This document shows positions 1 to 14,815 of a stretch of 14,815 nucleotides of DNA, piece by piece (the first letter of the stretch is position 1; the number at the start of each line of letters is the position of its first letter). The stretch covers positions 1 to 14,815 of the IMG/VR virus record IMGVR_UViG_2778261464_000012; one strand, 5' to 3'. Source of the DNA: a virus (Duplodnaviria > Heunggongvirae > Uroviricota > Caudoviricetes). The notes under the pieces are model-generated. The model saw only the letters and a program-made list of their open reading frames with translations. It made no database searches and was not told the origin of the DNA. The translations under genes were made by a program, and so were the position numbers.

Positions 1-216
1 TTACCCCATTGCTGCGGTTGCCGCAATACCTACACCACCTGCAAAAGTACCGAAAGCTGCACCAGTAGATGTTAGTAACTCATCTACGTTACCAAATGCA
101 CCACCAGCTTTATTATTGAATTCGGATAAACTATTACCCGCATTTTTCAATGATTGCTTCAAGCCAGATTCATTACCTGTGATTTCAAAAATCATTGATT
201 GTTTTTTATTTGCCAT
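1..216 (-). CDS. Tape measure protein, N-terminal fragment (gene continues beyond window start)
   Basis: ATG at 216..214 directly follows the G/GT chaperone reading frames, the conserved position of the tape measure gene. The translation MANKKQSMIFEITGNESGLKQSLK...AGGAFGN...GAAFGTFAGGVGIAATAAMG is a Gly/Ala-rich N-terminus typical of tape measure proteins. The ORF is open to the window edge. Confidence 0.6.
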   Translation of the reverse strand: MANKKQSMIFEITGNESGLKQSLKNAGNSLSEFNNKAGGAFGNVDELLTSTGAAFGTFAGGVGIAATAAMG

Positions 217-882
217 TTGGCTTTACTCCCATCCATGCGAGCATGTTTGCACGCTGTTGTTTTGCTTGTTCTTCTGCGATCTGCTTCTCCTTCTCTGCTC
301 TTTCTTCTGCCTGTTCTGCACGAGTTTTATTACTAAGCAATCCTAGTGAATCGAATTCTTTAGTACTGAACTTGTGCATATCTTCTTTTCTGATATTTCC
401 AGTACTCAACCATAGAGCTTGCATGATTTCACAATGACGCATTTGATCTACTTGTGCTGAGTTTGGGTCTATAACTGTGTCATAGACGTATATATAAAAG
501 AAAAGCAAAAGGGGCATGGTGTAGAGTTCATCCACACCACACCCCTTATTACGGATTAGTTTTAGAGTTAGTGCAAGAAACGGATCGCTTCTTACTTTTT
601 TTCAATATTATCAATATTTATTGATTCAGAGAAGATACGATCAATCTCTTGGCTTAGTTTCATCTGTACTGATAATTCTACGTTTTCTTCAATCTGTTCT
701 GGTGATTCGAATAGTGGTTTACCTTCGTCATCAACTACACAATGATAGATAATTTTGAATGGTGTAGTACATTGGGAATATTGAGCTAGTGAAGGCATAC
801 GAATTTTCACAACTACATTTGGTGCTAGTTCAAATTCGTGGGTTTTTACTCCAATCACGCTCATTAAATCATTTAGGTTCAT
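206..882 (-). CDS. Tail assembly chaperone G-T fusion product made by programmed -1 ribosomal frameshift
   Basis: The -1 frame is open from 601 down to the TAA at 208..206 and overlaps the last codons of the 96-aa G ORF. A slippery heptamer A_AAA_AAG lies exactly in the overlap. The 109-aa ORF in the track (206..535) is the downstream part of this frame. Position immediately upstream of the tape measure gene matches the conserved G/GT arrangement of tailed phages. Confidence 0.6.
592..882 (-). CDS. Tail assembly chaperone (gpG-like), 96 aa
   Basis: ATG at 882..880 is preceded by AAGGAAG with about a 6-nt spacer. The ORF lies between the major tail protein gene and the tape measure gene and ends inside a slippery site. 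Confidence 0.65.
   Translation of the reverse strand: MNLNDLMSVIGVKTHEFELAPNVVVKIRMPSLAQYSQCTTPFKIIYHCVVDDEGKPLFESPEQIEENVELSVQMKLSQEIDRIFSESINIDNIEKK
595..601 (-). other. -1 frameshift slippery heptamer A_AAA_AAG
   Basis: Plus-strand 595..601 is CTTTTTT, so the minus strand reads AAAAAAG. The zero-frame codons are GAA AAA AAG TAA; after a -1 slip the frame continues AAA AAA GTA AGA AGC... (KKVRSDPFLALTL...) with no stop until 206. Confidence 0.6.
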
Positions 883-919
883 TTGTATCTTCCTTGAATT
901 ATGGTTTTATTGATATTAT

Positions 920-1390
920 TTAGTCACCAGCAGTTTCACCGCTTGCAACTGGAGCACCAGTAACTACAAATGTATATTCACGTTGTGCTTGTGAATCAAA
1001 ATCACCAGCAGTAGTGTTAGTAGAGATATAACCGTTAACAACTTGGAAGTAAGAAGCACCATCAGTACCAGTAAGGTTCTCATAGTAAGTTACACGTAGT
1101 TGTACTTTGGTTAGGTTATCTGCATAAGTGTTAAGTAGTTCTTGACCAACTGCACCAGGAATCCAGTTGACAGTTAGAGAAATATCAGGAACGTTTTTAG
1201 AACCAGGTAGTTTCTCTGCATAAAGTTCACCGAAACTATTCACAGTAGCCATATTGGTTTCTGCCCCCGCGACGGCAGGGAAAGCTGCTACCTTCTCAAC
1301 TACAGTAAAGGTTGTTGCAACACCACTAACAGGAGCTAAAGCAATCTCAACTTTGACATTGTTAGCCATAAACATATTTTTAAATGCCAT
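920..1390 (-). CDS. Major tail (tube) protein, 156 aa
   Basis: It sits immediately upstream of the G/GT chaperone genes. ATG at 1390..1388 is preceded by AGGAAAAAAAG. The LTVNWIPG motif and overall pattern resemble lambda gpV-type tube proteins (by recall, not by search). Confidence 0.6.
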   Translation of the reverse strand: MAFKNMFMANNVKVEIALAPVSGVATTFTVVEKVAAFPAVAGAETNMATVNSFGELYAEKLPGSKNVPDISLTVNWIPGAVGQELLNTYADNLTKVQLRVTYYENLTGTDGASYFQVVNGYISTNTTAGDFDSQAQREYTFVVTGAPVASGETAGD

Positions 1391-1412
1391 TTCTTTTTTT
1401 CCTATTTAAAGT

Positions 1413-1433
1413 GGGTAACAGATCTTGTTACCC
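1413..1433 (-). other. Intergenic stem-loop between the 952-aa gene and the major tail protein gene
   Basis: Perfect inverted repeat GGGTAACA (1413..1420), 5-nt loop GATCT, TGTTACCC (1426..1433). It lies between the stop of the 952-aa ORF (1444) and the tube gene ATG (1390). No U-tract follows on the minus strand, so it is not a canonical intrinsic terminator. Confidence 0.4.
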
Positions 1434-1443
1434 TTCATTCATC

Positions 1444-4302
1444 TTATTTATGAAGATTGTAGTACTCTATATATAGTCCTAATCCTCTTAGTACTTCCCC
1501 GCTATAAAAGCCAAAGAACATACTATTGTTTTCTGCCGTAGTTGGAGTACCAGAACGTATAGCGGCTGCCCACGTACCATTCATTACATGATTTGACGTG
1601 ATTACCTCATAATAACTTTGTACTTCATCAAACAACATTTGTATTAACTCATCATCTGGATAACCAGCAATTGCCATAGAACAAGCACCTGCTAACCATA
1701 GTCCTGACATATGAGGGGTAAATCCATCATAAATTACTTCACCATTGTTTTTGAAACGTGTTGGTGCATGACCATCATTATTTTTCATAAACCATTTCAA
1801 GTAATTCATCCAGTTTTTACAGTACTGAATTATATTAGAGGGGATTGCATAATCACCACGTGACCATAATTCATATACTACGTTACATCCTGCATAGAAT
1901 GCACGTGGTTCATAACCAGACCAAGCCTCTGAATACCAGTGATCCATAATGAATGTATCTACTTTCTCACCTGCTGGTAAGTACGCTAATGCGTCCTGAC
2001 GGTTCCATACAAACGCCTGAGCACATGGACCTGGTACAGTAGGATGAAATTTATTAGTAAACCCGTCCTGTGAATCACATAAGAACTTGATACTATTATT
2101 TAGTCTTACTGTATCAATAGTAGTTCCTTTAAAACACCATACTGTAGGTAATTGGTAGCCCGGATACGGAAGACCACGCCAGCCAGAATATAACTGTGCA
2201 TATGGATCTGTAATGTTACTGAACGGTATTAGACCGGGAGTATATGCAAGGCTATCTAACATATAGTCTCTGATAGTACAGTTACCAAGACGTGCCGTAT
2301 AACCACTATCAGTACTGTCATTGAATGTTAAATTAACTAGTACAGAATAGTCACCAGTACCGCCATCGTTATATAGTTCTGGTAGATCGTTTATACAGTA
2401 CCAATCTATACGCCCTGAAACGCCGTCTATCGGGTCATCATCTAATAGTAAGGTAAAGTCCTCTAGTTGTGTTAATGTCACTGCTGCGGGCTGCTCATCG
2501 CCTTCTACGTGGTTTGGTTGATAACTGTTTAGTTTAAAATCTAACTGCGTTAAATCTTTAGTTACCCATTCACCACCACTAGCAGGTAACATAGTCCACC
2601 ATCTCCAACCATCTGGATCGGTAACACGTAAGTTAAAGTCATCATTATATGTACGATAGGTGAATGATTTTAAATCTTGTCTCTCATCGTCATAGATATA
2701 GAATCCTACAACCATCCCGCCGTCACCATCCATAGTACTGGTGATTACGTTGTCATAGTACTTACCAGCTATTCCAGATACATACTCAAACCTAGTGACA
2801 GTATTAGAACCATAATCAGAGACATTACGCATATCTGCGGTTAGGTATTCACCACCATCAGGACGTTTAACACGGGTAAAGTGATTCATTGGTACATCCA
2901 TTACCGTAATAGAACCATTTGGGTTAGTATTTGGAATACCGCAACGGTATAGTGTTGAACCCTCTTCTACTTTCGTCTTATTCACTGTCATTTTAACAGC
3001 GAGTCCTAGAGCTACACCAGTAGTATCAACACCGCCACATTCAATATGGAATTTTGAGTTATTATTAAACTTAAACCAAATTGATTGTTGTTCTAGGGTA
3101 GTCTGTGCTGATGCACTTTGATTAATTACAATATAACCTTCGGCATCACGTGAATAAGTTGCAATTCGATCACTTGGGTAGAAATAATCATATGAAATAC
3201 CATCAGTGAATGGCGTTGTTGCAATTGTACTCTTACGGAAGAACATATCAAATCTATCAATATCTGAATAACCATAACAAGTAAGTAGTGAACACTGCCA
3301 CGCTAGATAGTGTTTACGTTCCCCTGTAATATCCCATAGCATTTTAGATGCAAGACAGAACCACAATTCAGCATCTGATGCATTATCAGCGAAATCAAGA
3401 CTACCGTAATTATCAATTGGTACGTTTACCGGGCGGTTGTGCCAACGTTCATTACGTTTAAACATATAACCGCCATGTTCTACGGGGTTACGTGTTGCAT
3501 AGTTGAAACGGTAATTACCATTAATAGAAGTATCTTTAAGCTGTACTGTACCGATCTGGCTTGTTATTCCCTGTTCCAGTACATCACCGTTACTGTCAAC
3601 CTTGCGGCCTGTACGGTCGATAATCCAATCTACATCATAAGTTGGTGCTTTGGTCTTCCAATCAGTTGTACCGTCTTCTAACCACATATATGCAGTTGCG
3701 TTAACTTGGTTCCAACCTAGTGATGCACGTTCTGGAAAGGCGAACCATACAGCGTCCAAGTACTCACCATAGTTTGGAGCACCAGAAGGTATCTTAGTTT
3801 GTCCATTTACCCAATTGAATAACACCCCTTTAAAGCCGCCATGTGTCGGATATTCGGGATCTAGTGGGTAGTTTGCCAGTACTGGAGCCTTACCATTACA
3901 AATCCAATTACAACGTAATGCCGTACTTGGTGGATCTGGAAATGGTACACCACGATAGAATGCTAAATGATATGCATCAAAATATTCTTTTGCTTTCTCT
4001 AGATAGTATGGTTCTTTAGTTGCTTGGTAGCAGTGAATAGCACCTAGTATTTGTAGGGATTGTCCTTCGGTAGTTGCATCACCATCTGGTTGTGCTTCCC
4101 ACTGAGTTTGTGCGATAAAGTGTCTATTGTTTGCAAGTACATTATCTGGATTTAAAACATAGTGCTGAGTTTTATTATCGGTTGTTAGTCCGGTGTTTCT
4201 GGCGAGGAACTTAAATTGCCCCTCTACCATTTGATACGCGTTATCTAAATTGTGTTTTCTAATCATTAGTGTAGATCTGCCATTAGTAAGGAGCCGAACC
4301 AC
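1444..4302 (-). CDS. Large (about 940-952 aa) Trp/Tyr/Cys-rich protein of unknown function; possibly a virion-associated carbohydrate-active enzyme
   Basis: Long uninterrupted ORF in the operon strand. Start is ambiguous: GTG at 4302, or ATG at 4266..4264 overlapping the upstream TAA (TAATG coupling). Composition and motifs (GQSLQILGAIHCYQAT, WYSEAWSGYEPRAFYAGCNVVYELW, GLWLAGACSMAIAGY) look like a globular enzyme rather than a fibre or sheath; this is inference only. Confidence 0.8.
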   Translation of the reverse strand: MVRLLTNGRSTLMIRKHNLDNAYQMVEGQFKFLARNTGLTTDNKTQHYVLNPDNVLANNRHFIAQTQWEAQPDGDATTEGQSLQILGAIHCYQATKEPYYLEKAKEYFDAYHLAFYRGVPFPDPPSTALRCNWICNGKAPVLANYPLDPEYPTHGGFKGVLFNWVNGQTKIPSGAPNYGEYLDAVWFAFPERASLGWNQVNATAYMWLEDGTTDWKTKAPTYDVDWIIDRTGRKVDSNGDVLEQGITSQIGTVQLKDTSINGNYRFNYATRNPVEHGGYMFKRNERWHNRPVNVPIDNYGSLDFADNASDAELWFCLASKMLWDITGERKHYLAWQCSLLTCYGYSDIDRFDMFFRKSTIATTPFTDGISYDYFYPSDRIATYSRDAEGYIVINQSASAQTTLEQQSIWFKFNNNSKFHIECGGVDTTGVALGLAVKMTVNKTKVEEGSTLYRCGIPNTNPNGSITVMDVPMNHFTRVKRPDGGEYLTADMRNVSDYGSNTVTRFEYVSGIAGKYYDNVITSTMDGDGGMVVGFYIYDDERQDLKSFTYRTYNDDFNLRVTDPDGWRWWTMLPASGGEWVTKDLTQLDFKLNSYQPNHVEGDEQPAAVTLTQLEDFTLLLDDDPIDGVSGRIDWYCINDLPELYNDGGTGDYSVLVNLTFNDSTDSGYTARLGNCTIRDYMLDSLAYTPGLIPFSNITDPYAQLYSGWRGLPYPGYQLPTVWCFKGTTIDTVRLNNSIKFLCDSQDGFTNKFHPTVPGPCAQAFVWNRQDALAYLPAGEKVDTFIMDHWYSEAWSGYEPRAFYAGCNVVYELWSRGDYAIPSNIIQYCKNWMNYLKWFMKNNDGHAPTRFKNNGEVIYDGFTPHMSGLWLAGACSMAIAGYPDDELIQMLFDEVQSYYEVITSNHVMNGTWAAAIRSGTPTTAENNSMFFGFYSGEVLRGLGLYIEYYNLHK

Positions 4303-5948
4303 GTACTACCACCATCATAAGAAACAAACTGGAATACATCTGTTGAATCTTTCGTAAATGTCAGTACTGGTACACGCCCATAAGACCATAAAATTGAATC
4401 AGGCCATGATATTTTATTTGCCCCTGTGCCTTGTTTCATAGCTACAGTGAAAGATTGAGTATTCTTACTATTACCACTTGCGTTAACAATGGTAAAATTA
4501 GTTGTTCCTGCTGATAGTGTAACAGTGAATGCAGTCTTACTATCTGATAAATCAATCTCTAGGCTAGTGCCTGTGAGTGTATTTAGTGCTAATAGATCAT
4601 CTACAATTGTTACTTTTGTATCAATATTGGCTTGTAATACCTTGTCTTTATCATCAATTTGTTTCTTTGAATATGTTCCAACATCATCATAGTTCAAAGT
4701 AATATCACTGTTTAGGGCATAGCCATTAATACGGGTGATACGTAGTGCAAATAGATCATTTGATTGGGTACGTGAGTACACATCTGAAATATCTGCGGCT
4801 ACAAGTTGAATGTTAGTACCAGTAAGTGCCTTGTTATTCACTAAGAATGTTTTAGGTACAAAAGTACTGTTACTATAGCTTAGACTTGCCATATCGGTTA
4901 GTTGTGCTGCACCTAGTGTAATATTCCCACTTAATGCCACGCCGTTAATCGTCTGAGTCTTTGCAACAAAGTTAGTATTAGTTTGTGTCTGTGAGTACAC
5001 ATCTAAAATATCTGCCGCAACCAAGTTTAATGAAGTACCAGATAGTGCATGACCATTTAACTGAAATACTTTTGGAACAAATGTATTAGTGATATAAGTT
5101 TGTGAGTACACATCAGAGATATCTGCGGCTACAAGGGTAATATTCCCCGTTAGCTGTTTACCGTTTATTGTCTGTGTTTTTAGTACATAGTTATCTAGGC
5201 TTGCACTGGAGGCTGCACCAAGTTCTGTTAGTGTTGGTTTATCTGCACTTGTATAGACTTTGTACCATGCACCCATAGATGTTCCGTAGTTACGGACGTT
5301 TATAATTGGTGTACCAGTTTTACTAATTACTAATTGAGTACCAAAGTTTGTATCAAGATTATTAATACCTAGAACATCAGTACCAGTTGGTGAAGTAGTA
5401 GATGGAATCTTAATAAATCCGTTACCGTCGCGTTCTTGCCAGCTTGGGAAAGTAGTTCCATTAGAGCCAACGCCATAATCACCACGGTTTAGCGGTACTG
5501 TAGTTTCATCAAGTATACCAGCACTTACTAATGCAGTTGGTGCAAAGGTATATGTTTTAGTTACTACATTATCATAACTACCAGCAGTTGATGTAGATGT
5601 AAGAACACCGTTATACATTGCATATGGAACGGTAGTATCATCTGCACCTTCATCTGGCATTTCAATTTTCATCTGAACTTCTTCACCAGAAGATACTAAA
5701 TCATCTAGAAATTGGTGTACGGATGGAACCCAATTAACGGTGATCGTTACGTCATTATGAGACATATCACCAACTTCTTTAGCCATAAATGTAGAATTAT
5801 ATGGTTCAATTGAAGTAACTTGTGTGGTAGCACCTACTACTGGAAATGAAGCCAGCTTTTCAACTTGTTCAAATGCTTTTGAATTTGGATCGGTATTAAG
5901 TGTGTTAGTATTAATCCACACTGTTGTGTAGTTAGTTAAGAATGACAT
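4266..5948 (-). CDS. Tail protein (560 aa) with tail-tube-like N-terminal domain and tandem fibre-like repeats
   Basis: Residues about 25-145 align with the 156-aa tube protein (EKLASFPVVG / EKVAAFPAVAG; ITVNWVPS / LTVNWIPG; TKTYTFAPTALVS / REYTFVVTGAPVAS). Residues about 255-423 contain four to five repeats of about 36 aa (KTQTINGKQLTGNITLVAADISDVYSQTYITNTFVP and variants). Confidence 0.8.
   Translation of the reverse strand: MSFLTNYTTVWINTNTLNTDPNSKAFEQVEKLASFPVVGATTQVTSIEPYNSTFMAKEVGDMSHNDVTITVNWVPSVHQFLDDLVSSGEEVQMKIEMPDEGADDTTVPYAMYNGVLTSTSTAGSYDNVVTKTYTFAPTALVSAGILDETTVPLNRGDYGVGSNGTTFPSWQERDGNGFIKIPSTTSPTGTDVLGINNLDTNFGTQLVISKTGTPIINVRNYGTSMGAWYKVYTSADKPTLTELGAASSASLDNYVLKTQTINGKQLTGNITLVAADISDVYSQTYITNTFVPKVFQLNGHALSGTSLNLVAADILDVYSQTQTNTNFVAKTQTINGVALSGNITLGAAQLTDMASLSYSNSTFVPKTFLVNNKALTGTNIQLVAADISDVYSRTQSNDLFALRITRINGYALNSDITLNYDDVGTYSKKQIDDKDKVLQANIDTKVTIVDDLLALNTLTGTSLEIDLSDSKTAFTVTLSAGTTNFTIVNASGNSKNTQSFTVAMKQGTGANKISWPDSILWSYGRVPVLTFTKDSTDVFQFVSYDGGSTWFGSLLMADLH
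4680..5186 (-). repeat. Tandem in-frame coding repeats of about 105-110 bp (4-5 copies) inside the 560-aa gene
   Basis: Near-identical DNA blocks are visible, for example GTGAGTACACATCTGAAATATCTGCGGCTACAAG near 4770, GTGAGTACACATCTAAAATATCTGCCGCAACCAAG near 4995, and GTGAGTACACATCAGAGATATCTGCGGCTACAAG near 5105. They correspond to the protein repeats ...LVAADISDVYSQT.... Confidence 0.7.
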
Positions 5949-5950
5949 TA

Positions 5951-6388
5951 TTATTCCCCGTAGCTAAATGTAATTGATTGCGTATGTACATACATTGTTT
6001 TTTGTGCTTCGGCTTGAGTTGTCATTAAACTATCACCAACTAGTACATTATAAATTGGCATCCTTAGTAGTTTGTTTAAATCATCTAAGAATCCCTTAGC
6101 AAAAATTGCCTCTAGAATCTTTTCAATTTCTTCTGAGGCATTTTTAAAGTCTTCGGCAACTGATACGAAATCAATACGAAATTCACAAAGGTTTTGTACT
6201 TCTTGCGGTACTATTTGTGCCGCGATTACTGGCATATTTTGAGGAATCTTATTTCTCATTACTGAACTTTCCCCAATATAAACCATAGCTTTTTTATCTA
6301 CTGATGCTTTCGATGGAAAATGAAGATTCGCTTTAGTACTTAATCTGTTGGTTAGGTACTTTCTGATTGTATAGTCTGCCGTGTACAT
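5951..6388 (-). CDS. Putative head-tail connector / tail completion protein, 145 aa
   Basis: Small ORF packed between the capsid gene and the tail genes, separated from its neighbours by 1-2 nt. Assignment is by position and size only. Confidence 0.45.
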   Translation of the reverse strand: MYTADYTIRKYLTNRLSTKANLHFPSKASVDKKAMVYIGESSVMRNKIPQNMPVIAAQIVPQEVQNLCEFRIDFVSVAEDFKNASEEIEKILEAIFAKGFLDDLNKLLRMPIYNVLVGDSLMTTQAEAQKTMYVHTQSITFSYGE

Positions 6389-6389
6389 A

Positions 6390-6683
6390 TTAGATATCCT
6401 CTAAATTAATCTGTTGAATATAGTGATAATCTGAGATTCCACTCAAATCATCATCTATTCTATTTACTATGTAGGTAGTGCCATTATGTTCAAAAGTAAT
6501 ACCCACTGGTAAACCAGTTTCAGAAGTGAAATAGTTCACGGTAGATTCTGCATCTTCAAAAAAAATCTCGTCTTGCTCGAATATCACTGTAACAGTACTT
6601 GTTACTCCATCCTGAACAATGACGAGATCTTCACCGAAAGAATCTAGTAGTGATCTTTTTTGAGCTTTACTAAATCCTCTCAT
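6390..6683 (-). CDS. Putative head completion / head-tail joining protein, 97 aa
   Basis: Small ORF starting 6 nt after the capsid gene stop, at the typical position of head-tail adaptor genes. Assignment is by position only. Confidence 0.45.
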   Translation of the reverse strand: MRGFSKAQKRSLLDSFGEDLVIVQDGVTSTVTVIFEQDEIFFEDAESTVNYFTSETGLPVGITFEHNGTTYIVNRIDDDLSGISDYHYIQQINLEDI

Positions 6684-6688
6684 ATATA

Positions 6689-13094
<6,406 letters not shown>

Positions 13095-13099
13095 ATGTT

Positions 13100-13303
13100 T
13101 TGTGTACATCTAAAATGTCACATACAATTGAAAGCAATCGGTGCCGAAAACTCGCGTTGATAATCAGGCTGGAGGAGTACCTAAATTATTAGTTTCACTT
13201 AATTAGGTTGATTAAAAGCACTTACATTTCATTTTACTTGATCATTATTACAATGTAACATTGCAAGCACATACACATTGCCGTTCAAGAAGGAATATCC
13301 AAA
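13100..13303. promoter_or_regulatory. Divergent intergenic control region; candidate location of cos and of the DUF3800-gene promoter
   Basis: About 200 bp non-coding stretch between divergently arranged terS and the DUF3800-like gene. It contains three TTGAT(A/T/C)A motifs and a direct repeat ACATTGC...ACATTGC just upstream of the plus-strand RBS. Exact promoter and cos positions cannot be fixed from sequence alone. Confidence 0.3.
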
Positions 13304-14425
13304 TTGGTAAAAAATGTCTACTTCGACGAATCAGGGTTTACAGGTAATAACTTACTTTCAAAAGATCAGCCTTTTTTTAGTTACGCTGCAGTCGTGACTG
13401 ATGAAGAGGAAAGTAAACAGTTTGTAGATTACATAATACAAAAGTACTCGATCGCAGCCGAAGAGCTAAAAGGTAGCACTCTCGTTAATAGCAAGAGATT
13501 ACAACCAGCCGTAGATGAGATACTTAATCATTTCCGTGGACGTATGCGTGTGGTTGTTAACGAAAAGAAATATGCCCTTTCAGGAAAATTCTTTGAATAT
13601 ATTTTCGAGCCAGTATTAGCAGCTAAAAGCTCAATATTTTACAACCTTAAATTCCACCTATTCATATCCAATATAATGTATTTTTCTTTAATAGCTAAGG
13701 ATGAGTATTCTGAACTATTGCATTCTCGATTTGAAGATTTTTCACGAGGTAAAATATTAGTTAATAGTTTTATCGAACCAGTTATTGGTACTAAAAACTC
13801 TGAAATTATGATGGACATTCATGATTTCGCCAAGCATAACATTTCAATAATTGAAGAGGAATATGAAGGTCTCGAGGGCACTGGGGTTGATAAATGGTTG
13901 TTAGATTTGACAACGACTTCTCTTTATAATCTCTTATGCGATATGAGTAGTAAGTTTGGTACATTGAGAGCTATATGTGATAGTTCAAAACCATTAATTA
14001 CCCAACAAGACGCATTCAATGAGATGATAGGTAATGATGAAATTGTGTTCGAGACCTTTAATAATAAAAAAATCCCGATCACATTCAAACTATCTGAGCC
14101 CATAATCCTTTCTGATTCTAAAGTCACGCATGGTATACAAATTGCTGATGTGATAGCTGCAGCCAGCATTTATGTGCTTAATAAGAAAAAATCGAAAGAA
14201 AGATATCACTCCAAATGGCTAACTCATTTCGAAGATGAGATTTTTTATTGGCAATGTTGTGTTGTTCCCACACCTGAAAATCTTGATCCTAAAAATGTAA
14301 ACAATTATTTGAACAGATATATATTGCAAGAAATTGCTGAACGAAGCAGAAAATCACTACCTGTTTTAGATGATATTGAAAAAGAAATCATGCGAATTTC
14401 CAGAACATTAGCCATGGTGCGTTGA
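13304..14425 (+). CDS. DUF3800-like protein (373 aa), function unknown; candidate phage moron / accessory gene
   Basis: The only long plus-strand ORF not antisense to a structural gene. TTG start at 13304 is preceded by AAGAAGGAA at about 9 nt. The N-terminus VKNVYFDESG and the C-terminal SKVTHGIQIADVIAAA match, by recall, the DESG and GxQxAD signature of DUF3800. It looks AT-richer than the structural genes by eye. Confidence 0.75.
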   Translation: MVKNVYFDESGFTGNNLLSKDQPFFSYAAVVTDEEESKQFVDYIIQKYSIAAEELKGSTLVNSKRLQPAVDEILNHFRGRMRVVVNEKKYALSGKFFEYIFEPVLAAKSSIFYNLKFHLFISNIMYFSLIAKDEYSELLHSRFEDFSRGKILVNSFIEPVIGTKNSEIMMDIHDFAKHNISIIEEEYEGLEGTGVDKWLLDLTTTSLYNLLCDMSSKFGTLRAICDSSKPLITQQDAFNEMIGNDEIVFETFNNKKIPITFKLSEPIILSDSKVTHGIQIADVIAAASIYVLNKKKSKERYHSKWLTHFEDEIFYWQCCVVPTPENLDPKNVNNYLNRYILQEIAERSRKSLPVLDDIEKEIMRISRTLAMVR

Positions 14426-14430
14426 AGTAT

Positions 14431-14473
14431 ATATCCTCATGCTATGTTATTAGCACCAGTAGCATGAGGATAT
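14431..14473 (+). terminator. Inverted repeat downstream of the DUF3800-like gene (possible terminator or protein-binding dyad)
   Basis: ATATCCTCATGCT (14431..14443) and AGCATGAGGATAT (14461..14473) form a perfect 13-bp stem with a 17-nt loop, starting 6 nt after the stop codon. A T-run (TTATTTTT) lies about 14 nt downstream, so it is not a textbook intrinsic terminator. Confidence 0.3.
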
Positions 14474-14815
14474 CATATGTAATTCAATTATTTTTACCAT
14501 GACCAATATATTTAATCAATTAATGATTTGACCTCAATAATTGTTTAGCTATATTAATACATTCTTGAATCCTTTCCTCGCGTATTAGACACGTAGTACT
14601 GCCATTGTCCATCTGGTAGATTGGATTATAGATGCGACCGCAATCACTCTGGAACTGAGGCCGGTAATACTTCACTCCGTTACGTGTAGTTGCCACTTCA
14701 GTACATCCCCAGCAATGAGCCGACAGCCGTGTATTTCTATCTGCGGCTGGATTTCCACTCCGAGCAACTGCCCATTAAGAGTCGTAATCGGTACAGCCCA
14801 GTACTGGATGTTCAT

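Follow-up and report, generated by a model that had tools for sequence, protein, structure and literature searches.

What kind of gene stands beside the packaging genes of a tailed-phage element, reads in the opposite direction, and encodes a protein from a family with no established function? The question is raised by IMG/VR record IMGVR_UViG_2778261464_000012 (Caudoviricetes), of which positions 1 to 14,815 were analysed; this whole stretch of 14,815 nucleotides is called the window throughout. The gene in question occupies 13304..14425 and belongs to the DUF3800 family. We hold with high confidence that it is an autonomous cargo gene whose product has an RNase H-type fold, a view that combines the comparison of related elements with a predicted structure. 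Its possible role is argued below from the places in which homologues occur.

A stand-alone DUF3800 gene opposed to the packaging operon

The locus contains two divergent genes with an intergenic gap of 244 bp:

13304..14425, plus strand: DUF3800 gene, 373 residues, TTG start, encoding a stand-alone protein with a predicted RNase H fold, a helical insert and a C-terminal helical domain
12478..13059, minus strand: terS (small terminase), matched by PHROG 57 at E 2.7e-17, leading the late/packaging operon

An earlier note, made from the sequence alone, had reported a 373-residue open reading frame (ORF) with a TTG start running against the late operon and upstream of terS, and had read the motifs YFDESG and GIQIADVIAAA in its translation as marks of DUF3800. 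Both statements stand. Every large ORF to the left of the gene lies on the minus strand, in a lambda-type head and packaging module. TTG is the earliest start available downstream of the preceding in-frame stop, the next in-frame methionine would cut off the DESG motif, and a ribosome-binding site, AAGGA, lies 8-9 nt 5' of the TTG. Seven enterobacterial copies likewise have TTG at the homologous position, where the Erwinia copy has ATG.

The Pfam model DUF3800 (PF12686) aligns residues 4-287 with profile positions 1-145 of 149, scoring 41.9 bits against a gathering cutoff of 21 (E 2.2e-10), and is the sole domain found by a Pfam scan, giving a single-domain architecture. PHROG 12991, a family of unknown function, matches over the full length at E 5.6e-117. 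The protein shares with these families an N-terminal D-E pair (D8-E9, within YFDESG at residues 6-11) and a C-terminal Q-x-x-D (Q279-I-A-D282, within GIQIADVIAAA at residues 277-287). It differs from the Pfam model in that the 149 positions describe a split core, to which the ~375-residue subfamily adds an insert of ~130 residues and a C-terminal domain of ~75 residues. A 99.7% identical RefSeq protein from E. coli, WP_052119642.1, is already titled "DUF3800 domain-containing protein".

A word-indexed search returned 413 homologues. The E. coli ones are 94-96% identical, that of Enterobacter 88%, those of Serratia and Lonsdalea ~80%, of Erwinia 70% and of Rahnella 59%; a shell at ~40% identity takes in Vibrio, Psychrobacter, Aeromonas, Rhodoferax and others. 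An exhaustive profile search, with clusters made at 50% identity, found 334 clusters at E<=1e-30, a number that rises to 1038 when the threshold is E<=1e-10. Nearly all clusters at the stricter threshold are 360-400 residues long with one full-length match; judged by sequence, the ~375-residue proteins are a discrete, unfused subfamily of constant length. Invariant positions in an alignment of 67 homologues at 38-96% identity include D8, E9, E54, K56, K88, K95, E98, E102, D201, D226, G277, Q279, D282 and N337. The ratio of nonsynonymous to synonymous substitution rates (dN/dS) is 0.05-0.10 against five distinct relatives. The gene is under purifying selection and is therefore functional and tightly constrained.

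Predicted fold and candidate catalytic residues

An AlphaFold2 model of the protein (pLDDT 89.6, pTM 0.87) has an RNase H fold, predicted to be closest to type 2 RNase H (RNase HII/HIII), with likeness further down to the wider RNase H-like superfamily, including retroviral integrases, Piwi/Argonaute and the RuvC domain of Cas9. In the model the insert, at about residues 88-218, and the C-terminal domain, at 300-373, are both helical. D8 and E9 sit at the end of strand 1 and D226 at the end of strand 221-226, while helix 276-292 carries Q279 and D282. As candidate catalytic carboxylates we name D8, E9 and D226, plus Q279/D282; of these, D8, E9, D226 and D282 are modelled at the secondary-structure positions expected for a type 2 RNase H. 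Kinship to RNase HII, HIII and H2A is, on this model, a matter of fold only: sequence similarity is not detectable, and the large helical additions set the DUF3800 protein apart.

Variable cargo in a slot beside terS

The host element is a member of an uncultured enterobacterial family of prophage-like elements (L001, L003 and L017-L046), which are ~25-36 kb long and combine a lambda-type head module and protease-capsid fusion with a large serine recombinase. Neither the window nor the cassette has a megablast match among INPHARED phages, and the best INPHARED match to the large terminase gene, terL, is at most 33% identical, so the element has no cultured relative. The sole "phage" match by tblastn, Pseudomonas OQ658364, is an unannotated ORF in a chromosomal flank by integrases and is uninformative.

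A terL-based scan of IMG/VR recovered 30 related elements with terL 63-96% identical, ~26 of them with enough upstream sequence. The DUF3800 gene is present in just 5 of these ~26. It is missing from the structurally closest elements, L018 (terL 96%, portal 94%) and L017, whose terS is only 58% identical to that of the window. It stands beside terS in E. coli G3/10, E. coli AREA_C483, a Logan contig and Erwinia sp. STN24. The G3/10 copy is 99.9% identical, with a 100% identical terS, and is damaged by an insertion sequence; its element splits ybhA and has its own pyridoxal phosphatase gene plus Hcp, DUF1493 and STM2901-family genes. Against the Logan element, identity is 95.7% for DUF3800, 90.7% for terS, 64-72% for terL, 61% for the portal and 43% for the capsid. 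Against AREA_C483 it is 94.1% for DUF3800, 68.7% for terS and 69-77% for terL, and against the Erwinia element 69.9% for DUF3800 and 38-43% for terS, terL, portal and capsid. Because the closest structural relatives lack DUF3800 while DUF3800 identity disagrees with that of its neighbours, the window reads as a mosaic, its structural genes like those of L018 and its terS-to-DUF3800 segment like that of the Logan element.

Adjacency to terS in four diverged elements had hinted at a conserved core gene, an idea that the IMG/VR survey rejects; the earlier note had named conservation in all related phages as evidence against a cassette, and comparative genomics finds instead that the gene is not core. 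The slot that holds it is bounded by two backbone features:

13108..13182, no strand assigned: conserved non-coding backbone motif, TCACATAnAA...GCCGAAAACTCGC-N18-20-GGAGTACCT
14520..14815, minus strand: deletion remnant of two backbone genes, with ~540 bp missing by tblastn and blastn against the intact genes of L003

In an alignment of 11 elements with differing cargo, similarity stops directly past GGAGTACCT, at position 13182, which makes the motif the left edge of the slot and 13183..~14519 the cassette. The motif is found upstream of terS in DUF3800 carriers and in non-carriers alike; the suggestion that 13143-13182 is part of the cassette, such as an associated RNA, was rejected on the same ground. 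The remnant marks the right edge. It consists of two short ORFs in different frames, which join the first ~50 codons of backbone gene c1 to the last ~48 of c5; it is convergent with DUF3800, and its ATG is the end of the window. The c5 product is a small lipoprotein-like protein, and at the c1 position the Erwinia element has an EAL-domain gene (Pfam EAL). Both families recur in related elements, and both are intact in L003.

Clustering of upstream ORFs places the slot between the conserved motif and c5 and c1. Other elements fill it with a 230-residue protein, a pair of 135 and 191 residues, a 423-residue protein, a DuOB-domain protein (the PADLOC candidate PDC-M45A), small genes or nothing; the cargo clusters other than DUF3800 are c58, c10/c13, c34, DuOB and others. 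A cassette at an accessory hotspot, with different cargo in relatives, had been predicted from the single sequence, and the survey bears it out. The wider accessory region holds 8xMP membrane proteins and DUF2971 (PADLOC candidate PDC-S31).

The survey bears directly on whether the gene serves the element itself, in replication, in processing linked to cos or packaging, or in counter-defence, for example by removal of RNA:DNA hybrids or degradation of a host immune nucleic acid such as retron multicopy single-stranded DNA (msDNA), and gives the host no protection. In all intact carriers the gene is found right by terS and the possible cos site, but L002 and L031 have another gene between DUF3800 and terS, with terS 69% identical there. 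Between the window and L003, terS (91%) and DUF3800 (96%) agree while terL is dissimilar, which suggests joint transfer; against this, the gene is missing from ~21 of the 26 related elements, the structurally closest included, and it is retained in remnants without packaging genes. An RNase H-type fold would suit primer or hybrid processing, yet the gene is transcribed against the late operon, and its homologues include one in a chromosomal integron and others within type I restriction-modification operons. We regard service to the element as improbable.

Signals and composition of the cassette

The cassette has candidate flanking signals of its own:

13183..13303, plus strand: cassette 5' region, with a candidate weak promoter and a ribosome-binding site, AAGGAA, at 13290-13295
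14431-14444 and 14460-14473, plus strand: arms of an inverted repeat, 14 nt each and 100% complementary, with a 15-nt loop

The candidate promoter is formed by TTTACT at 13233-13238, a 17-nt spacer and TAACAT at 13256-13261 with TG just upstream, a match at 8 of 12 positions. Where the window has TAACAT, relatives carry an extended -10 element, TGTTATATT, and the promoter-like site is stronger in them.

The strong inverted repeat that the earlier note had seen after the gene proves to be a hairpin that begins 5 nt past the stop codon and folds at -25.8 kcal/mol (z -5.2), a value equalled by none of 200 shuffles. Its U-tail is poor. Relatives have a hairpin at the same site with different sequences, and those of the Erwinia and Rahnella copies are canonical T-tailed terminators. 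The hairpin at 14431..14473 is thus probably a terminator, or an RNA-stabilising hairpin, that separates convergent genes.

Base composition had also been offered as a sign of independent acquisition, and here the observation holds while its interpretation is weak. The ORF has 34.1% GC, the region 1..13059 has 38.2%, and the lowest value for any 1122-bp segment of the structural region is 34.4%. The GC content at third codon positions (GC3) is 0.297, not below that of the structural genes (0.21-0.30); the deficit sits in the first and second positions, hence in an amino-acid composition rich in Lys, Asn, Ile, Phe and Tyr, and AT-richness is no proof of foreign origin. Codon-usage distance is slightly raised, at 1.02 against 0.54-0.89 among the structural genes themselves, and the element as a whole is already AT-rich. 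On the GC3 result, composition was set aside as evidence of a separate origin, for which it is a weak argument.

Genomic contexts of the homologues

Decayed remnants in Serratia marcescens (icd site) and in Enterobacter and Rahnella (msyB site in both) have lost their structural genes and kept this gene intact; in the latter two a terS fragment is all the packaging sequence left. Such remnants indicate a gene that is autonomous, works as a single unit and is retained by its hosts. A Vibrio cholerae homologue at 44% identity makes up exactly one cassette of the superintegron, a single ORF between 125-nt VCR repeats, in an array that also holds cassettes for SIR2, Mrr-like and DUF2971 proteins and ccdAB. 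About 18% of tested V. cholerae integron cassettes of unknown function show anti-phage activity (10.1101/2024.07.02.601686).

A scan of one genome per species gave 68 loci in Gamma-, Beta- and Alphaproteobacteria, Campylobacterota, Bacteroidota, Cyanobacteria, Chloroflexi, Spirochaetes and Clostridia, a distribution that looks patchy and horizontally transferred. Families that recur in the 150 ORFs closest to the homologues are specificity and methylase subunits of type I restriction-modification systems, phage integrases, Mrr_cat, AAA_13, rve, HicB and NA-iREase1, with one AbiH. Neighbours of the Rhodoferax homologue include SMEK_N, a KAP NTPase and an NmeDI-like gene, and in one metagenome-assembled genome of the Alteromonadaceae a CRISPR array lies 1.1 kb from the homologue. 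The most regular arrangement is a restriction operon:

L087 5375-11675 (also L088, L089 and L091): type I restriction operon with a full-length DUF3800 homologue at 31% identity

In these four spirochaete (including Treponema) and Clostridia genomes the genes run hsdM-hsdS-DUF3800-AAA_13 and are 0-22 bp apart. The hsdS-adjacent slot of type I operons is the classic position of restriction-linked latent abortive-infection nucleases such as PrrC and RloC. The distant DUF3800 homologues share that placement, downstream of hsdM and between hsdS and an AAA_13 ATPase; the window copy differs in having no linked restriction-modification genes, and the protein has no sequence relationship to PrrC or RloC.

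These contexts speak to a second alternative, in which the gene is a lysogenic-conversion or housekeeping-type nuclease outside genetic conflict, acting for example in RNA turnover or stress repair. The product folds like a general nucleic-acid enzyme, no known defence model was matched, and ordinary metabolic genes are among the neighbours. Such a role fits poorly with a patchy, horizontal-looking spread over many phyla and with rarity in E. coli, where the gene is in 2 of 5426 complete genomes; integron cassettes, prophages and restriction-modification loci are, moreover, locations typical of conflict genes. We give this alternative a small chance.

A third alternative is selfish stabilisation, with DUF3800 as one half of a toxin-antitoxin-like pair whose partner would be a small RNA or peptide; the gene would persist because its loss is harmful, and it would have no anti-phage role. 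Addiction would account for the intact gene in decayed remnants, and the integron array with the V. cholerae homologue also holds ccdAB modules; the integron cassette itself, against this, has one ORF, and no partner ORF is conserved across the homologue contexts. Dedicated structured RNAs occur near other DUF3800 genes, and eleven structured RNA motifs have been linked to members of the family (PMC5737381). Of these RNAs, DUF3800-I to -XI, at least RF02969 and RF02968 are present in Rfam 15. In 12900..14815 the Rfam DUF3800 models have no match at E<=10, and no other credible RNA was detected around the gene, the weak matches being a reflection of the hairpin in the terS leader; 14 homologue loci have none of the DUF3800 RNAs at the gathering score, and the 121-bp 5' region of the cassette is conserved among close copies only. 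In Legionella, transposon sequencing (Tn-seq) scored a DUF3800 gene in a variable region as essential in the manner of, and alongside, antitoxins (10.1101/2020.10.01.323287). We judge addiction unlikely, though less so than the other two alternatives.

Comparison with known systems

An RNase H fold has been predicted for DUF3800 before, and members of the family are tied to retron type VII and to Cas12a2/a3 (PMC7736814, PMC10910872, PMC12669027). The window protein shares with those proteins, which are linked to immune systems, the Pfam domain and the predicted fold. It differs from the retron members in that the Q of QxxD is kept, whereas retron-linked DUF3800 proteins lack it (PMC7736814); the window locus has no reverse transcriptase or non-coding RNA, and the protein does not match the PADLOC models for retron VII. 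A reverse transcriptase is likewise absent from the related loci. The TPR-DUF3800 proteins of Cas12a2/a3 loci differ in a TPR domain and in cas genes, neither of which is present at the window locus; no cas genes lie nearby.

The position of the gene had been likened to that of lambda bor, and the likeness holds in part: bor too is a single gene that runs antisense to the late genes, not far from the right cos end. It lies about 1.75 kb from that end, after the lysis genes, whereas the slot of the window abuts the motif beside terS. Bor is a lipoprotein unrelated to the DUF3800 protein, and the host element belongs to a different, uncultured family. We take bor as a fair yet loose analogue. 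With prophage morons in general the cassette shares variable presence among relatives, and its hairpin would give it a probable terminator of its own. P2 and P4 hotspots are other places where prophages carry morons and defence genes, and variable single-gene cargo near a possible cos site, antisense to late genes, is a known pattern of morons and hotspots.

Proposed role

The explanation we prefer is as follows. The segment 13183..14519 is a self-contained single-gene accessory cassette (a moron) in a variable slot at that end of a prophage-like element where terS and a possible cos site lie, with what we infer to be a weak promoter of its own and with its own terminal hairpin. As it is transcribed against the late operon, lysogens could express the cassette, and a TTG start would be expected to hold its expression down. 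The product would be a metal-dependent nuclease of RNase H2-like type, its activity suggested by the modelled fold, and the helical insert and C-terminal helical domain would probably provide recognition of a substrate or trigger. Such a nuclease would act either on an infecting phage, by cutting its nucleic acid, or on host RNA as part of an abortive response. Possible targets include RNA:DNA hybrids, replication intermediates and structured RNAs. The lysogen would be protected in this way, through superinfection exclusion or anti-phage defence.

As a whole, this account of a host-protective accessory nuclease cassette seems to us evenly poised between right and wrong. The role in anti-phage defence or exclusion, which is drawn from the genomic contexts of homologues, stands at or just short of that same balance, and in any specific substrate our confidence is low. 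A bolder version is offered tentatively and is the more likely to be wrong: that the ~375-residue stand-alone subfamily is an unrecognised single-gene anti-phage system, an RNase H2-like nuclease, gated by the helical insert and the C-terminal domain, that would sense and cut a phage RNA:DNA hybrid or replication intermediate, and that the slot is a defence hotspot. If that were true, the slot by the possible cos site would also hold further candidates, namely the 186-residue c2 protein, 8xMP, DuOB, DUF2971 and a second DUF3800 paralogue.

Several results weigh against a nuclease with a role in defence. The structure prediction proposed in the earlier note yields a nuclease-like fold with the motif residues where they would be expected, but Foldseek against the PDB is not significant, RNase HII entries appearing only at E 0.1-0.3. 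An hhalign comparison of the family profile with E. coli RnhB (RNase HII) gives a probability of 0.1, and hmmsearch of all PDB sequences with that profile returns nothing at E<=10. A phmmer search of the PDB sequences gives a chance ThiJ match alone (E 0.48), and a search of BFVD returns only another DUF3800 protein (E 0.013). NCBIfam has no match to the protein, and the search of defence-system models that had been advised earlier came back empty: no PADLOC-DB 2.0 family matches at E<=1, the retron VII DUF3800 models included. A scan of the plus strand of 13183..13303 against the promoter consensus finds nothing at 9/12 or better, which leaves the promoter a weak candidate. Control ORFs 6.5-10 kb from the homologues are mostly housekeeping genes yet include some mobile and defence genes, in a comparison that is qualitative only. 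The literature search gave no experiment on the ~375-residue subfamily, and the essential Legionella gene fits addiction as well as defence.

The packaging side of the slot

Two further features belong to the packaging side:

10650..12563, minus strand: terL, gpA-like, part of the head and packaging module
13065..13094, minus strand: GC-rich hairpin of 12 bp followed by T6, found by terminator scan, inverted-repeat search and minimum-free-energy fold of the leader

The module also includes a head-tail joining protein, a portal, the protease-capsid fusion and tail-fibre-like proteins. Listed ORFs overlap by 86 nt between terS and terL (12478-12563) and by 98 nt between portal and capsid (8571-8668); the lambda Nu1/A overlap is 26 nt. 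In each pair the downstream ORF probably has its true start later than listed.

The hairpin at 13065..13094 directly precedes the terS ATG, and its 3' arm includes AGGAGG, the Shine-Dalgarno sequence of terS. On either strand the hairpin resembles an intrinsic terminator, and it would also mask the ribosome-binding site of terS, which suggests control of the late/packaging operon by antitermination or by translational unmasking. This hairpin is part of the backbone, outside the cassette. The neighbouring motif at 13108..13182 is a putative cos site, regulatory site or late-promoter control site. Read toward terS it gives AGGTAC-N21-GCGAGTTTTCGGC, which recalls, at the level of short motifs only, the lambda series AGGTTACG, GGGCGGCGACCT and CGCGGGTTTTCGC with the flanks of cosN. 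Homology to lambda cos was rejected, as the overall alignment is not significant; the short-motif resemblance remains.

Other genes of the accessory region

Genes of cluster c2 (186-187 residues) are divergent and adjoin terS, between terS and the conserved motif, in 15 of 27 related loci. Examples are L002 14420-14983 and L031 2429-2992; the window has no c2 gene, and the c2 protein has no Pfam or PADLOC match. In L018, positions 1037-2206 encode a second, divergent DUF3800 paralogue of 389 residues (Pfam E 1.4e-9), which adjoins DUF2971 and a membrane-protein gene elsewhere in the accessory region.

A gene for 8xMP, or "RipA family octameric membrane protein", lies 0.2-1.5 kb downstream of DUF3800 in four loci, two of them decayed remnants:

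L001 22996-23685
L003 12637-13320
L004 11363-12343
L010 12188-12901

An obligatory partnership was considered and rejected: the gene is absent from the Erwinia, Serratia and distant contexts and falls outside the window. Rather than a partner, it may be a frequent co-passenger of DUF3800. A literature search on 8xMP and octameric RipA gave nothing relevant.

Implications

The family, the RefSeq label and the moron pattern were already known, and the locus is not a novel kind of system. Should the gene have no phenotype, it would be merely one more piece of prophage cargo with an annotated domain of unknown function. DUF3800 is nevertheless widespread, and genomic association ties it to retrons, to Cas12a2/a3 systems and to eleven structured RNAs; to our knowledge, no activity has been demonstrated for the domain. 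Because the gene described here is compact and stand-alone, with defined boundaries, candidate catalytic residues and no partner gene, it offers a practical entry point to DUF3800 activity, and it comes from an element compatible with E. coli. The slot by the packaging genes of this uncultured enterobacterial prophage family could be mined for accessory and defence genes.

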